Assembly: GCA_000165345.1 (NCBI GenBank)
Contig: CM000436.1
Coordinates: 928,001-992,000, forward strand
Reading direction: 5' to 3'
Length of the DNA stretch: 64,000 nucleotides
Shown: positions 51,757-58,236 of the stretch, one piece after another
Layout: each line of letters begins with the position of its first letter
Numbering within the stretch: position 1 is the first letter of the stretch
Program-made: the position numbers and the translations under genes
Notes under the pieces: model-generated
What the model saw: only the letters and a program-made list of their open reading frames with translations
Databases searched by the model: none
What the model was told of the DNA's origin: nothing

Positions 51757-53440
51757 TTAGATGTTAATATAAGAATCGTGTAAGTCAACTGCCTTGGAAT
51801 TAATCGAATTCAAGACGGATAGATATTTCTTTAGAGTTTTGAGACTTCTGTGGAAACATTGTTGTTGTTCTTTTTGGACATTTCTGTATAATAGAAGTGA
51901 AGTAAGCAAGGAAGCAGTAAGGAAAAGCCACACACTTATTTGATTTTCCGGAGTTAAGTCAAAAGAAGCAGCAGTACCGTTTTGTTGGATGGCTTCACTA
52001 TTAGAGAAAATGTTGAATCCAGAATAGTTACAAACCTGGAAAATAGCCATAATTAGCATTAGTAAAATGATGAATAGAGAAGATTTTTTATACAAATTTT
52101 TTTGTCGGTATAGATTTTCTTTATTTTTCTCAAGTTGCGTTTGTTTATATATAAGGCACTTATTATGCTCAAGTAAAGTTTGACAATCATTTAGTAGTGT
52201 AGCAATATCGTCCTGGACTTTCCTATCCACAACCTTTTCGATTTGGTCAACAACTTCCAAGATTCTGTTTAGAGTGGGGAGGCCATTACCTACTTGAGAT
52301 AATTTGTCCGGTGCATGTGATTTACCAGATTTAGTTCGAACATTAGTTATATTCTGATTTTCTGAATTTGAAAACGACTCTCCTAAAGATTGAAGGGTGT
52401 TTAAGGTCAAATAGGTTCCGTCCTTTGCACCTGCAATATATATGGGGATTAAATCAAAACCATGCTTGATTGCAATGCTGGAGCTAAGATTCTGGGTGAC
52501 TTGGCATATTACTTTAATTCTATCTTCCTCTGTAGGAATTTCATCAATCTTTGTTAATAGAAAACTTGTTTTGCGAGGAGCATTTTGTGCAATATATTTC
52601 GCAAAACTTAAAAGCCTTTTACTAAGAGCTTGTCCTGAAGGGTCAATACAAATCAAAACCAAGTCACACAAAGACATTGCAATATCTCTAATTACATTAT
52701 CAATATCAAAAGAATATATTGAATCGCCATCTAATAATCCTGGAGTGTCAATAAAATTAATACTTTGCAACCTTCCTTGATTAGAAGGGAAAGTTTTAAC
52801 AGACAAACTTGGAAGTAGAGTTGGGTTCCTCTCCACAACTTCTCTGAGCTCTGGTAAAATCATTAAAGCTGTTTCACCGCCAATTTCATTAACTTGTTTA
52901 CCTGAAACCACAAATGAGATTCCACAAGTTTCTATAGCCATTCCTGTCTTTTGTATATTTTCTTGCAACAGCCAATTAATCAATGTGCTTTTTCCCGCAG
53001 AAACATTTCCAATTATCATTACAGTAGCCTTCCTTCCCAATTTGGAGACCTTTAAGTTTAATGCTCTGCTTATTGAATATAGGCCTAACCCATCATCATT
53101 ATTCTCAAGCTCTTCTTCATATCCTTCCATTTCATCTTCATATTGATTTATAAATCTATCCAAATTGCGGCTTTTACCTCCTTTTCTTCCCATACCATGT
53201 ACTCTTCCAACTTTATATCCATTGTACAAGCCATAAATCTAAAAAAAAAAAGCAAATGTAAATTAATTTTAAAGTTCATAATATCTCATTAACCTGGATA
53301 CAACATCTCTCCAAAGCTAATGATGGTAATATTAACAACAATATTTTCAAACATACCTCATCCAGTATAGATGCATTCAAATTATTACGCTGCTCATTAG
53401 GCTTTAATGCCAGCAAAGATGGTTTTACTTTATCTTGCAT
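51757..53440 (-). CDS. membrane-anchored dynamin-superfamily fusion-type GTPase (Sey1/atlastin/Fzo-like G domain + 2 C-terminal TMs), 2 exons: join(53440..53357, 53238..51757)
   Basis: G1 IIGNVSAGKSTLINWLL, G3 DTPG, G4 TKID. Two hydrophobic segments lie near the C-terminus (LFIILLMLIMAIFQV, ISVWLFLTASLLTSLLLY). ORF-track start 53229 is TTG, and the in-ORF ATG is at 53193. Upstream, an ATG exon (MQDKVKPSLLALKPNEQRNNLNASILDE) ends GAG|GTATGT at 53356. A 118-bp intron ends ttttttttttTAG at 53240..53239, and phase 0 continues into IYGLYNGYKV... Confidence 0.65.
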
Positions 53441-53608: not shown

Positions 53609-53616
53609 ATTCCCGC
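53609..53616. promoter_or_regulatory. TTCCCGCC upstream of GTPase exon 1 (minus); TTTTGGCGG at 53826..53834 upstream of eIF2B-gamma
   Basis: Two E2F-like sites sit in the 518-bp divergent intergenic region between 53440 and 53958. Confidence 0.45.
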
Positions 53617-53957
53617 CTTTTGTGTGCAAATAATACAAAATTTTAAACTGAAGGCGAATTAGAATTAATGAAAATAGTAGAAGAAATAATCTTTCAAAAT
53701 GGAGCATGATAATTTAAATATCTAGTGGACTACTTTTTGTTATCTTTGGATGTTTGTGCTTTTAATAATTAGTAATTTATTTGTTTTAGTCAATTAGTCG
53801 TAACTAGCTATATTAAATAAAAGGTTTTGGCGGTAAAGTATCGAATATAATAAACATTGACCTGGGAAAAAAATTAAGTAAAACCTGCTTTAAGTTGTTG
53901 TCCAACTTAAATAATATTTTAACTTAGGCGAATTAACTAGCTATATGATTTAATAAA

Positions 53958-55460
53958 ATGACATCAAATAACGAGCGTTTTCTATATTCTAGTGAATTCA
54001 AGGGGGTGATTTTTGCAGGTGGCTCTGGTAGAATGTTGGGACCACTAGCAAAGAATATTTCAAAGGCAATGATCCCAGTATGTAATAAGCCAATGATATG
54101 GTACCCTTTATCTAATTTGATACAACATAGGATTAGAGATATATGTATATTTTGCGAGGAGGAGTTTGAGAATTCTATAAGAAAATATATTTCAGAGACG
54201 TTTTCAAATGATACGATAATTAAAAGGTTTGAATTTGAAGAAACATATCAACAAAATATTAAAATTATTGGATTAAAGGAAGATGAGTCTTTATTAGAAT
54301 CAAGTGGTACTTGGAGTATTCTATCAGAATATGGAAAAGAATTTTTACGAGATTCTGACTTCTTTGTCTTAACTTGTGATGTTATTGGACCATTAGATTT
54401 ATTAGGATTAGCAAATAAGCACCGTCTTACACAAGCTGTATGTACTATCTTATTAACAGAAAGTCCTGATTTATCCAAAATTAAAGGTTCTGGAAAGCAA
54501 ACCTCTAATTCAAATAATCAAGCTCAAGCAAATCCAATTGGAGGAATTTCAGTTGATTTGCAAAAAGATAAAAATAGAAGTATCTTTGTTATAGATGAAA
54601 AAGATGAAGTAATTCTATCTATAAAAGATTTTTATTCTGCTAAGCAAGAAAATGAAGTTTCCGAATTAAGCAAGCTTCAATTGTTTTGGCATCCCAATGT
54701 ATCATTACGTACGGATTTGGTAGACTTGCATGTATATCTATTCAAATCCTCCATTTTTAAGATCCTTGAAATTGCATCTGGGTCACAAAAAATATCCACA
54801 ATTGAATACCCAGAAGATGGAATTGAGTCAATCAGACTAGAACTTTTACCATTCCTTGCGAAAAATCAACATGTACCAGGTTCTGAGCTTTGGGGCAGGT
54901 CCAAGTTTGATTGTTATCACTTTCTAGACGACGAAATAACTACATCGAACGATTCATCTGTTAAATTCACTAAAATTGACCTTCCTCCGAAAATAGAAGG
55001 TACATCAGTATCATATTTCCTCCAAAAGCTCCCTCAAAATTCTTCTAGGGTAAACACTATCATGGCTTTACATGATTGCAATTTGGCGGCAACATCTCCC
55101 GCATACTTCCCTGCATGGCTAGCTGAAGAACATGATATAGGGACAAATGTGGGGAAGGAGGTAATCATCGGTCAAAATTGTAACCTTGGAAAAAGTGTGC
55201 AGTTAAGAAGATGTGTTATTGGGTCAAATGTTGAAATAGGAGATGGCTCTAAGATTGTAAACTGCGTTATTTTAGACAATACAAAGATAGGATCCAAGTG
55301 TACAATTCAGAACTCAGTCATTGGCCAATATTCTGAGATTGGCGATTCATGCAAAATTTCCTATTCTGTAATAGAGCATTATTTTAAAGTGGATGCCAAC
55401 TCAAAATCGCAGGGAGAGATAATGGAAAAGAGAGATGAACTCTTCGAGATCAGTATTTGA
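53958..55460 (+). CDS. translation initiation factor eIF2B gamma-like (nucleotidyltransferase fold + left-handed beta-helix hexapeptide repeats), 500 aa
   Basis: The N-terminus VIFAGGSGRMLGPLAKNISKAMIPVCNKPMIWYPL matches the eIF2B-gamma/epsilon NT domain. The C-terminus has isoleucine-patch hexapeptide repeats (IGSNVEIGDGSKIVNCVILDNTKIGSKCTIQNSVIG). Confidence 0.75.
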   Translation: MTSNNERFLYSSEFKGVIFAGGSGRMLGPLAKNISKAMIPVCNKPMIWYPLSNLIQHRIRDICIFCEEEFENSIRKYISETFSNDTIIKRFEFEETYQQNIKIIGLKEDESLLESSGTWSILSEYGKEFLRDSDFFVLTCDVIGPLDLLGLANKHRLTQAVCTILLTESPDLSKIKGSGKQTSNSNNQAQANPIGGISVDLQKDKNRSIFVIDEKDEVILSIKDFYSAKQENEVSELSKLQLFWHPNVSLRTDLVDLHVYLFKSSIFKILEIASGSQKISTIEYPEDGIESIRLELLPFLAKNQHVPGSELWGRSKFDCYHFLDDEITTSNDSSVKFTKIDLPPKIEGTSVSYFLQKLPQNSSRVNTIMALHDCNLAATSPAYFPAWLAEEHDIGTNVGKEVIIGQNCNLGKSVQLRRCVIGSNVEIGDGSKIVNCVILDNTKIGSKCTIQNSVIGQYSEIGDSCKISYSVIEHYFKVDANSKSQGEIMEKRDELFEISI

Positions 55461-55692: not shown

Positions 55693-58236
55693 CTAACAGG
55701 AAGCAACTGTTATATTGAGTAATTCCCTAAGATTCTGAATTGAATTGAATGTTGCTTCTTTGAATAAATTAGAATCAGAGCAAGACTCTGCTGAGTTCAA
55801 GACGGCCTCAAGACTTGACTTTATATTGGAAGCAACGTTAATCAACTGAAGCCTCTTTTTGTTTTGACAGCTTTGAGGGTCTACGTAGACTTGTTCGACT
55901 AAAGTTAGTTCTTCAGCCTTTTCCCTTGATCTCTTGACAGTTTCTGAAGGGAGGCCAGAAAGTTCTGCAACATCAACTCCTAAAGACTTGTCTGTGAATC
56001 CTTTTTCAACTTTGTATAAGAACTTTAGAACTCCACTTCCTTGTTTAGAAAGAGATAGTGCTTTAGATGTAGATGCCGTTACTCTTAAATTAGTTACATT
56101 TGGGGTACTAGATGCAAGCGAACTGAGCTCATGAAAATGGGTAGCAAAAAGAGTATAACATTTTTTCTCACTAACAAGATAACTTGCAATGGACCATGCG
56201 AGGCCAAATCCATCAAATGTTGATGTACCACGCCCTAGTTCATCAACTATAACCAAAGTTCGCTCCGTTGCACTCCTTAGAATTGCAGACGCCTCAATCA
56301 TTTCAGCAAAGAAGGTAGAAATTCCAAGTATTTGCGCATCAGAAGCACCAACTCTACACATTAATTGATCCATTATAGGTATCTGTGCTTCTTGAGCAGG
56401 AACAAAGCATCCTATTTGGGCCAGTAAGGAACAAATAGCAATTTGGCGAATATAAGTTGATTTTCCACCCATATTTGGGCCTGTTATGATACTCAATAAA
56501 TTCCCATGACGGTGAAGTTCAACATCATTCGCAACAAACTGGCCAGTAGTAGAAACTGTTCCTTGGGCTTCAATTAATGGGTGACGAAGTTCCTTGCAGT
56601 AAAATCGGCAATTACAATTAGTGGATCCATCCTCCGAGATTTTCATTTCAGTTGCCAAATTGCATTTCCCATTGACCATTTTAGGCCTTACAAATGGAAT
56701 CTGGGCGCATAAAGACGTCATTGAAAAGCTCAAAAGAACGTCAATTGACCCCAAAATACCTGCAAGCCGAGAAACCAAAGACCAATAAGTAGAAGCTACA
56801 GATAAAGCCTTAACAAGTACTTGTTCTTGCTCATTATTATATTCTTTTATAACTTTTTCTTCACGATCTGAAAGGTCCATTAGCTCGTTTGTCCTAAAAA
56901 TATAATCATTCTTGTTTATTCTAACCTGTTTAAATCGCTTCTTATCTTGGAAATATTCTATGTCCCTCCTAGTGACTCTAAAACAAAGACTTGTATCAGC
57001 TCCTTCTCCTCTTATAACTCTAACAGCCTCTCTAGACCCTTCATTATATCCACGTTCTCTGCAGAGATATGCATCCAAATCTTTCCTGTGGGCCTCGATT
57101 TTACGTTGTATCCTATTCTTCTCTTCTGAAAGCTTTTCAAGTTCTGGGGTAAAATATGGAATAATCAAGTAGTTACCTTTGTCCGCTTCTTCAAGATCAA
57201 TAGTCTTTTCAACTAATCGAATATAGTCTTTAAACCTGTTCAATGTTGACTCCAATGGTACAAGAATTAGGTCATATACTGACTGAACAAAACTTGGAGA
57301 AGAATCTGAGTTCTTATTTTCCTCCAATGCATCCTTTATATCAGAAAAAATATTTCCTGATTGCATTACACTATCATACAACTTGACCATATCCTCTAAA
57401 CCGAACTTTGGTTCTCTCTCAGATTTTGAGCTTTCAGAAGCCATTAAAGAAGCAAATGTCCTAAATCGGACAGCTATTTGATCTAAATCGCAAACTTTAC
57501 GCATATGAATACCATACAATTTCTGACGTAAGAAGTCATTTTTACAAAAGAATTCTACAACATCTTGGCGTGAAATGATCTGTTTCTCATCAATAAGAGG
57601 TTGTCTTAGCCATTGCTCAAGTCTTCTAGCACCAACCTTAGTTCTAGTTTTGTTCAGCAACCCAAATAAATTTGTTGATGCTTTACTACTTTCTCCCTTG
57701 CTTGGAAAGATCCTTAATGATTGAACACAGGCAGAGTCCATTCTCATGAAAGTTTTAGTTACAAGAAACTTAATTTCACACTGAGAGTTATTCTCTTTAG
57801 ACTGGACTAACTGAAAATGTCTTATTAAGTTAAGCAATGAATGTCTAATCAATTCACTTTCTAACTCCTTCCCATAACTGCTGCATGACCTCCTTAATAG
57901 AGGAGAAATTATGACTTCAAAATCTTCAACAGTAGATGATTTTGGGAACTCGATTTCTTCGCATGTCCAATTATTGTTCATATCTAGTAAATTACGTAAA
58001 CGCTTTAAGCTTAAACAATCTTTCTGAACTGAGTAAACTACATTACTTGGCTGAGTCCTTACAAGTAAAGACTCTAATTCAGAAAGTTGTTCATTATCTT
58101 CTATATTTGCTACTGAAATTAATCCACTGTTTACATCAAAAAGAGAAATCCCAAGTTTTGGTTCAGTAATTGTCTGTTTTGCAACAATTGAGCAGAAAAT
58201 TCGAGTTTTAAAATTTATATCAATTGTGTTGTTCAT
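55693..58236 (-). CDS. MSH2: DNA mismatch repair protein MutS homolog 2, 847 aa
   Basis: ABC ATPase core TGPNMGGKSTYIRQIAICSLLAQIGCFVPAQEAQIPIMD, STFFAEMIEASAILRSATERTLVIVDELGRGTSTFDGFGLAWSIASYL, TLFATHFHEL. This is closest to the MSH2 signature (STFMAEM..DELGRGTSTYDGFGLAW). Confidence 0.9.
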   Translation of the reverse strand: MNNTIDINFKTRIFCSIVAKQTITEPKLGISLFDVNSGLISVANIEDNEQLSELESLLVRTQPSNVVYSVQKDCLSLKRLRNLLDMNNNWTCEEIEFPKSSTVEDFEVIISPLLRRSCSSYGKELESELIRHSLLNLIRHFQLVQSKENNSQCEIKFLVTKTFMRMDSACVQSLRIFPSKGESSKASTNLFGLLNKTRTKVGARRLEQWLRQPLIDEKQIISRQDVVEFFCKNDFLRQKLYGIHMRKVCDLDQIAVRFRTFASLMASESSKSEREPKFGLEDMVKLYDSVMQSGNIFSDIKDALEENKNSDSSPSFVQSVYDLILVPLESTLNRFKDYIRLVEKTIDLEEADKGNYLIIPYFTPELEKLSEEKNRIQRKIEAHRKDLDAYLCRERGYNEGSREAVRVIRGEGADTSLCFRVTRRDIEYFQDKKRFKQVRINKNDYIFRTNELMDLSDREEKVIKEYNNEQEQVLVKALSVASTYWSLVSRLAGILGSIDVLLSFSMTSLCAQIPFVRPKMVNGKCNLATEMKISEDGSTNCNCRFYCKELRHPLIEAQGTVSTTGQFVANDVELHRHGNLLSIITGPNMGGKSTYIRQIAICSLLAQIGCFVPAQEAQIPIMDQLMCRVGASDAQILGISTFFAEMIEASAILRSATERTLVIVDELGRGTSTFDGFGLAWSIASYLVSEKKCYTLFATHFHELSSLASSTPNVTNLRVTASTSKALSLSKQGSGVLKFLYKVEKGFTDKSLGVDVAELSGLPSETVKRSREKAEELTLVEQVYVDPQSCQNKKRLQLINVASNIKSSLEAVLNSAESCSDSNLFKEATFNSIQNLRELLNITVASC

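Follow-up and report, generated by a model that had tools for sequence, protein, structure and literature searches.

A conserved EHD-type GTPase of the dynamin superfamily with a predicted transmembrane hairpin in Cryptosporidium parvum

The stretch of DNA analyzed here, hereafter termed the window, comprises 64,000 nucleotides (nt) of Cryptosporidium parvum chromosome 8 (GenBank assembly GCA_000165345.1, contig CM000436.1, positions 928,001 to 992,000), is AT-rich with a G+C content of 33%, and carries on its minus strand a two-exon gene whose spliced product is a protein of 521 residues (Table 1). This protein is a dynamin-superfamily nucleoside triphosphatase (NTPase) whose G domain and helical domain are of the EHD type, and it bears two hydrophobic segments near its C terminus that are predicted to anchor it in a membrane. 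Alignments indicate that the same layout is conserved across eukaryotes in a family that is uncharacterised. The gene itself is already annotated, and the gene model is not new; our concern is with the class to which the product belongs and what it may do.

Table 1. Coordinates of the GTPase gene, of the parts of its product and of neighbouring features (positions in the window; residues of the spliced protein; TM, transmembrane segment; pLDDT, predicted local distance difference test; AF2, AlphaFold2)
Feature	Position	Strand	Residues	Details
Exon 1	53357..53440	-	1-28	84 nt, ATG + 27 codons; MQDKVKPSLLALKPNEQRNNLNASILDE
Intron	53239..53356	-		118 nt, GTATGT...T11-AG, phase 0; 3' end TTTTTTTTTTTAG
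Exon 2	51757..53238	-	29-521	includes TAA stop (51757-51759); aligns over its full length with orthologues
N-terminal helix, split by the intron	53221..53401	-	14-34	AF2; ILxEIxxLY; pLDDT ~85 at residues 21-30
EHD-type large G domain	52387..53037	-	~96-312	
G1 / P-loop GNVSAGKS	52987..53010	-	105-112	G105, N106, S108, G110, K111, S112 invariant (family alignment)
G3 DTPG	52738..52749	-	192-195	D192, P194, G195 invariant (family alignment A3)
G4 TKID, then Glu	52543..52554	-	257-260	K258 nearly invariant, D260 invariant (family alignment)
Disordered Ser/Asn-rich insert, G domain/stalk boundary	52282..52386	-	313-347	pLDDT <50; Cryptosporidium rows only
Stalk helices, the latter leading into TM1	52030..52263	-	354-399, 401-434	AF2
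TM1	52030..52080	-	415-431	SLFIILLMLIMAIFQVC; Kyte-Doolittle 2.75 over 17 residues; YKK on N-terminal flank
Loop between TM1 and TM2, with N-x-T/S sequon	51940-52029	-	432-461	
TM2	51889..51939	-	462-478	ISVWLFLTASLLTSLLL, then YRNVQKE; Kyte-Doolittle 2.07 over 17 residues
C-terminal helix, predicted cytosolic	51763..51843	-	494-520	AF2 pLDDT 80-90; conserved R/K-A-x-x-L-x-x-x-Y end
MFS transporter open reading frame (ORF)	48659-50494	+		Pfam MFS_1 8.9e-43; 611 residues, TTG start in mechanical ORF list
244-residue ATG ORF directly downstream of GTPase gene	50636-51370	-		no Pfam match
eIF2B-epsilon/gamma-like nucleotidyl transferase	53958-55460	+		NTP_transferase + LbH_EIF2B
MutS homologue	55693-58236	-		MutS_II/III/V
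Octamer GGCGGGAA	53610-53617	-		
Octamer GGCGGGAA	10261-10268	+		
Octamer GGCGGGAA	11952-11959	-		
Octamer GGCGGGAA	62205-62212	-		

The spliced protein is identical at 521 of 521 positions to the C. parvum GenBank models QOY40159.1, WKS79655.1 and others, and the 521-residue models of C. hominis, C. tyzzeri and C. meleagridis are 95-98% identical to it. Exon 1 is present in these current models and absent from a C. parvum model of 2004 (XP_627285.1/EAK89546.1, 478 residues), which is otherwise the same protein and starts at a second in-frame ATG at codon 44 (MGRKGG). The peptide of exon 1 is shared by C. ubiquitum, C. canis, C. felis, C. ryanae and C. serpentis/muris, unlike this Met44 codon, which C. 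canis and C. felis lack. A single annotated intron lies at the identical codon boundary in the genomic DNA of C. felis (ILEE|IYGLY, 73 nt) and of C. serpentis (ILDE|IHSLY, 59 nt), a distant gastric species; the intron sequences of both species are unrelated to that of C. parvum, though the phase-0 position is common to all. Splicing brings together the motif ILxEIxxLY, which is unbroken in Plasmodium, gregarine, chromerid, oomycete, Hemimastix and fish homologues. Translation through a retained intron ends after 54 residues (ORF 53276-53440). Given the identity with existing models, the conservation of exon 1, the shared intron position and the contiguous motif in homologues, the splice junction can be regarded as secure on comparative evidence. 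Two other Cryptosporidium models depart from this picture, that of C. ryanae (652 residues) by an acidic insertion of ~150 residues between the N-terminal helix and the G domain and that of C. bovis (502 residues) by lacking the N-terminal exon; both look like annotation differences rather than biology. Antisense ORFs in 51794-53292 were dismissed as mechanical because they lie inside a conserved coding exon.

An initial annotation, made from the sequence of the window, had proposed this gene structure, and most of what it described at the level of the DNA is borne out: the coordinates, the strand, the splice signals, the motifs GNVSAGKS, DTPG and TKID and the two hydrophobic stretches are all present, and the 5' exon and the 118-nt phase-0 intron are real by the comparisons above. 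The program-made ORF does start at a TTG, as it had remarked (490 codons, 51757-53229, minus strand, with three stops just upstream in the same frame), and the upstream exon does provide a proper ATG start, although the intron is not strictly needed for one because of the in-frame ATG at codon 44. The exon is hidden just from the mechanical ORF finder and the oldest annotation, however, and not from the current one. The size given, about 518 residues, falls short of the actual 521; the accompanying statement that the protein is much shorter than Sey1 or mitofusin stands.

In Pfam the protein matches MMR_HSR1 (1.5e-10), Dynamin_N (4.8e-9; 36.9 bits against a cut-off of 27) and GTP_EFTU (3e-7), all of them generic G-domain families, and at E<=10 it matches neither RHD3/Sey1 (PF05879), GBP (PF02263) or Fzo_mitofusin nor any EH or EF-hand family. 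In searches of PDB sequences with the single protein as query, phmmer returned EHD2 (5e-5), EHD4 (4.5e-4) and the Campylobacter dynamin-like protein (DLP) chain 5owv_C (6e-3), and did not find BDLP or mitofusin/Fzo1; with a profile of 23 eukaryotic family members the values became 2e-17 for EHD2, 6e-15 for EHD4, 1e-6 for 5owv_C, 0.017 for Mfn1 and 0.05 for BDLP, and no atlastin, Sey1 or GBP chain appeared at E<=1; with a profile to which bacterial relatives were added they became 7.5e-35, 3.2e-32, 1.6e-8 (5owv_C), 3.8e-5 (BDLP) and ~1e-3 (Fzo1). The AF2 model (pLDDT 73; predicted template modelling score, pTM, 0.66) tells the same story at the level of the fold: the top five matches of a Foldseek search against solved structures are all EHD4 or EHD2, followed by IniA, BDLP, the Campylobacter pair and mitofusins, and the EHD match reaches into the helical domain, with 319 residues aligned. 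All top full-chain structural neighbours are dynamin-superfamily members, and the neighbour lists hold no atlastin, Sey1 or GBP. The protein thus belongs to the EHD branch of the dynamin superfamily, and its resemblance to Fzo and BDLP is second-tier only. It is not a true EHD, however, for it has no EH domain and no Met after G4. In EHDs the Met that directly follows G4 (NKADM) sterically excludes guanine and makes these proteins ATPases (PMC5084822), whereas the corresponding residue is Glu in Cryptosporidium and mostly E, T or D across the family.

The G1, G3 and G4 motifs are intact in the window protein, and E131-T132 is present at the position of G2. Within G3, Ser takes the place of T193 in three members of family alignment A3, and alignments A1 and A2 show no variation at any of the four positions. 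Apart from the nucleotide motifs, one of the best-conserved elements of the family is a helix that aligns with the 'RVYGxLxWxL' helix of EHD and bacterial proteins; its Q274 does not vary, and the conservation of Q277 and L279 is 90% or more. Such strong conservation suggests that this Gln-pattern helix is a conserved protein-protein interface, not necessarily the one used by EHDs. The helical bundle of EHD2 takes in its N-terminal helices (PMC5084822), and the N-terminal helix of the window protein is predicted to join the bundle in like manner. The insert at the boundary of G domain and stalk is Ser/Asn/Lys-rich, occurs in all Cryptosporidium orthologues with a conserved core SEN-x-N-(I/T)-(T/S)-N, and is missing in Plasmodium, gregarines and every other lineage aligned.

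Both hydrophobic segments carry basic residues on their outer flanks (YKK... and ...YRNVQKE) and in the AF2 model extend long stalk helices (H401-434 and H458-487), such that long helices enter and leave both of them; the ~30 residues between the two are poorly conserved and of low pLDDT. The pair was recognized as early as 2004, when the product name mentioned '2 transmembrane domain near C'. Two or more hydrophobic segments with the same spacing from DTPG occur in 74 of the 85 near full-length family members among the best 150 representatives of an exhaustive HMMER search. From the lack of a signal peptide and the flanking charges, we infer a hairpin anchor with both termini cytosolic and the ~30-residue loop lumenal. 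A third hydrophobic stretch (residues 210-228) was rejected as a transmembrane (TM) helix, as it forms a strand in the core of the G domain. The loop between TM1 and TM2 contains an N-x-T/S sequon that reads NGT in C. parvum, C. tyzzeri and C. canis and NST in C. ubiquitum and is missing in the chipmunk genotype (NGA); if the loop faces the lumen of the endoplasmic reticulum (ER), this sequon could act as a topology reporter.

The exhaustive HMMER search delimits the family to which the window protein belongs as 542 clusters (50% identity) at E<=1e-3 and 65 at E<=1e-30, mostly of 420-520 residues, with E-values of 1e-30 to 1e-70 between the window protein and family members; a word-indexed search with the family alignment added nothing beyond the first homologue search. 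Members share a fingerprint, all of which is found in the window protein: an ILxEIxxLY helix, GN(H/V/I)SAGKS, DTPGL-DG, FDP-GQAL, (S/T)K-D, a Q-TQNL helix, two hydrophobic helices ~180 and ~240 residues past DTPG, and a C-terminal helix that ends in L-x-x-x-Y. They include Plasmodium spp. ('conserved Plasmodium protein, unknown function', e.g. CAD51164.1), Chromera, Vitrella and the gregarine Digyalum; further members occur in the oomycete Aphanomyces, in Hemimastix, in the chytrids Chytriomyces and Paraphysoderma, in the choanoflagellate Monosiga, in the filasterean Pigoraptor, in an amoebozoan, an apusomonad and a malawimonad, and in teleosts, whose copies (e.g. zebrafish si:ch211-11k18.4) are 83-94% identical to one another over their whole length. 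Misnaming is systematic in GenBank and UniProt: teleost copies appear either as 'uncharacterized' or wrongly as 'EH domain-containing protein 1/3/4', those of Chytriomyces likewise as EH domain-containing proteins without having an EH domain, and those of Cryptosporidium as '50S ribosome-binding GTPase' or 'LepA like'.

Relatives with two TM helices and the same layout also occur in bacteria. A scan of bacterial genomes with the single protein gave no match, and an alignment was therefore needed to detect them; the alignment-based scan recovered at least 559 loci in Desulfobacterales and Oligoflexia/Bdellovibrionota. Across the G domain and the first stalk helix, hhalign matches the eukaryotic family to these bacterial proteins with a probability of 99.8% (E 1.8e-28), in keeping with the report that the nearest bacterial homologues of EHD and sarcalumenin bear a TM helix pair (Schaffer, Iyer, Burroughs, Aravind 2020; PMC7016017). 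The two groups are alike in size (450-500 residues for the bacterial proteins) and in the succession of an N-terminal helix, an EHD-type G domain, a stalk helix, two hydrophobic helices and a C-terminal helical tail. The bacterial proteins are nonetheless nearer to EHD (1e-37) than is the eukaryotic TM family (2e-17); they retain an EHD-like 'RVYGTLCWNL' helix, and their G4 is NRID.

Set against characterised systems, the protein combines features of several. The EHD1-4/RME-1 proteins are peripheral and possess an EH domain with its linker, a polybasic lipid-binding tip, a Met after G4 and a Trp in the dimer helix, whereas the window protein is predicted to be integral to the membrane, has neither EH domain nor linker, carries a TM hairpin followed by a C-terminal helix in place of the tip, and has Glu after G4 and an invariant Q-x-T/x-Q-N-L pattern in the helix. 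With mitofusin, Fzo1 and BDLP, as with IniA and Campylobacter DLP1/2, sequence similarity is marginal (E 0.001-0.05); mitofusin, Fzo1 and BDLP have a second helical bundle and an HR2/Fzo_mitofusin domain that the window protein lacks, and it reaches at most ~2/3 of their length and has G-domain insertions of the EHD type. Atlastin, Sey1 and RHD3 share with it a common plan only, namely a cytosolic G domain, a short helical bundle, a hairpin of two closely spaced TM helices and a C-terminal helix (494-520 in the window protein), and atlastin is of similar size; this shared plan is no evidence of membership, and these proteins belong to another branch of the superfamily. Sarcalumenin bears a signal peptide and resides in the lumen of the sarcoplasmic reticulum. 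In the window protein a signal peptide is missing, and the G domain is predicted to face the cytosol. The G domain of sarcalumenin is of the EHD clade (PMC7016017).

The best overall explanation of these features, to which we assign a probability of about one half, is that the gene encodes an integral-membrane NTPase of the EHD branch that acts as a nucleotide-driven remodeller of its own membrane. Anchored by the hairpin with its G domain in the cytosol, the protein would bind and hydrolyse nucleotide, probably GTP, since the Met that specifies ATP in EHDs is replaced by Glu, and would self-associate in a nucleotide-dependent manner via the G domain and/or the strongly conserved helix alpha-6. 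The nucleotide cycle would deform the membrane in which the protein sits, and may tether and fuse, or at least zipper, like membranes, in the manner of a one-bundle 'mini-mitofusin' built on an EHD-type engine. Tethering or fusion is our leading guess as to the role, tentative and reached by inference only, with somewhat less probability given to EHD-like scaffolding or scission and the remainder left to other roles, for example at contact sites or in membrane repair. Candidate target membranes are the ER, another endomembrane and the outer membrane of the mitosome, among which the sequence does not name one. The family is not plastid-specific: Cryptosporidium, an organism that lacks a plastid and has a mitosome only, retains it, as do fully aerobic lineages. 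A mitochondrial role is conceivable because Apicomplexa have no recognisable mitofusins, organelle tethering and fusion there being an open question (PMC6871780); nothing in this analysis ties the family to mitochondria. A bolder version, which we consider improbable, would see in these proteins an unrecognised family, perhaps from the last eukaryotic common ancestor, that kept the two-TM layout of the bacterial ancestors of EHD and provides homotypic tethering or fusion where an organelle has no known fusogen in these lineages, for example at the apicomplexan mitochondrial or mitosome outer membrane.

Several points weigh against this reading. The EHDs, as its closest studied relatives, do not fuse membranes but scaffold or cut tubules, with ATP as their nucleotide, and the preference for GTP, though probable, is argued from a single residue. 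TM2 of C. parvum is moderately hydrophobic (1.6 over 19 residues, barely at the usual 19-residue threshold), and the protein may for this reason enter the membrane in a re-entrant or paddle-like way rather than span it twice; the segment is clearly more hydrophobic in all orthologues. The alignment behind the AF2 model is shallow, with 23 sequences, and how the domains of the model are oriented to one another is uncertain. Literature searches returned no paper on the eukaryotic TM-bearing family, nor on the localisation, phenotype or enzymology of any member, and yielded nothing on candidates for mitochondrial fusion in Apicomplexa; a 2026 review of EHDs and a review of Dictyostelium dynamins make no mention of TM-anchored EHD relatives, and the zebrafish gene symbol was found once, in an expression list.

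Membrane remodelling by an integral EHD-type NTPase must be weighed above all against a role like that of the EHDs themselves, in which nucleotide-dependent ring or helical oligomers held by the hairpin would stabilise or cut tubules (ER or endosomal carriers, a budding neck) and fusion would play no part. EHD2 makes helical oligomers on membranes (PMC5084822), EHD2 and EHD4 are the best matches by every method, with a match that extends into the helical domain, and the helix that corresponds to the EHD dimer helix ranks among the best-conserved elements of the family; yet where EHD and bacterial proteins have a Trp in this helix (W233 in the bacterial alignment), the family shows the invariant Gln pattern, so that an EHD dimer need not form, the EH domain and the Met after G4 are both missing, and the characterised superfamily members cited in PMC5084822 that have a TM at the stalk tip, atlastin and mitofusin, are fusion or tethering proteins. 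We hold such a role to be rather unlikely, if less so than the further alternatives. One of these is the class named by the initial annotation, a minimal fusogen of the Sey1/RHD3-atlastin or Fzo/mitofusin/BDLP type. That annotation was right about the dynamin-superfamily GTPase, with G1, G3 and G4 intact and Dynamin_N above its cut-off, and about two hydrophobic helices near the C terminus, which proved to be a family trait; a TM hairpin with both ends cytosolic is what atlastin and mitofusin have, and the want of mitofusins in Apicomplexa would suit a fusogen. Membership in the atlastin/Sey1 class is refuted, however, there being no sequence or fold match and the G4 being TKID, not the RD of GBPs and atlastins (PMC5084822). 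The Fzo/BDLP half of the proposal survives as a distant likeness: matches to mitofusin and BDLP are 12-30 orders of magnitude weaker than those to EHD, there is no Fzo_mitofusin (HR2) domain or second helical bundle, and the profile scores point to a placement in the clade of EHD and two-TM bacterial proteins, away from mitofusin and BDLP. The initial annotation had also regarded a best match to EHD/septin-type GTPases together with missing TM predictions as counting against a fusogen; the G domain does score best with EHDs, and the TM pair is present. As a whole, this second alternative strikes us as very improbable.

The database names 'LepA like TRAFAC class GTPase' and '50S ribosome-binding GTPase' imply instead a GTPase associated with translation or the ribosome. 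They draw on the Pfam matches to MMR_HSR1 and GTP_EFTU and on weak NCBIfam matches to Era, Der and YlqF, and we rejected them as misleading because these are generic matches to the P-loop core, with all NCBIfam scores far under their cut-offs (Era 37 against 237 bits). Beyond the G domain there are no LepA or EF-G domains, the whole-chain structural neighbours are of the dynamin superfamily, and the two conserved TM helices likewise speak against such a function, which is hardly credible.

The gene order around the locus, MutS, eIF2B-like nucleotidyl transferase, GTPase gene and MFS transporter, is conserved in C. felis and C. serpentis, where the orthologues of the transporter are shorter (588 and 570 residues, respectively); the true start of the C. 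parvum transporter may be an internal ATG or lie in a further short exon upstream. The product of the 244-residue ORF begins with a hydrophobic, signal-peptide-like stretch, is rich in Cys in its middle part and carries a C-terminal hydrophobic helix with basic residues behind it; its counterpart is called as a 221-residue gene in C. serpentis (L001 4718-5383), and none is called in C. felis. The octamer listed in Table 1 occurs four times in the window against 0.32 expected by shuffling, and none of 100 shuffles reached four. One copy (53610-53617) sits 170 nt upstream of the ATG at 53440, within the divergent intergenic region of 517 nt that lies between the GTPase gene and the eIF2B-like gene. 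The octamer appears similar to the E2F-like motif that has been reported upstream of Cryptosporidium genes.

With its EHD-type G domain on a TM hairpin the protein is a variant of known systems, and what is possibly new is its placement, that is, an EHD-type engine on a hairpin anchor of the mitofusin/atlastin type in organisms from teleosts and choanoflagellates to Plasmodium and Cryptosporidium. The finding corrects misleading database names and points to a conserved candidate membrane-remodelling family. It also bears on the origin of the EHDs, as the family may represent a eukaryotic branch that retains the bacterial two-TM layout. For Apicomplexa and the many other protists without mitofusins, the family offers a testable candidate for organelle tethering or fusion, and one that is genetically approachable in Cryptosporidium, Plasmodium and zebrafish.

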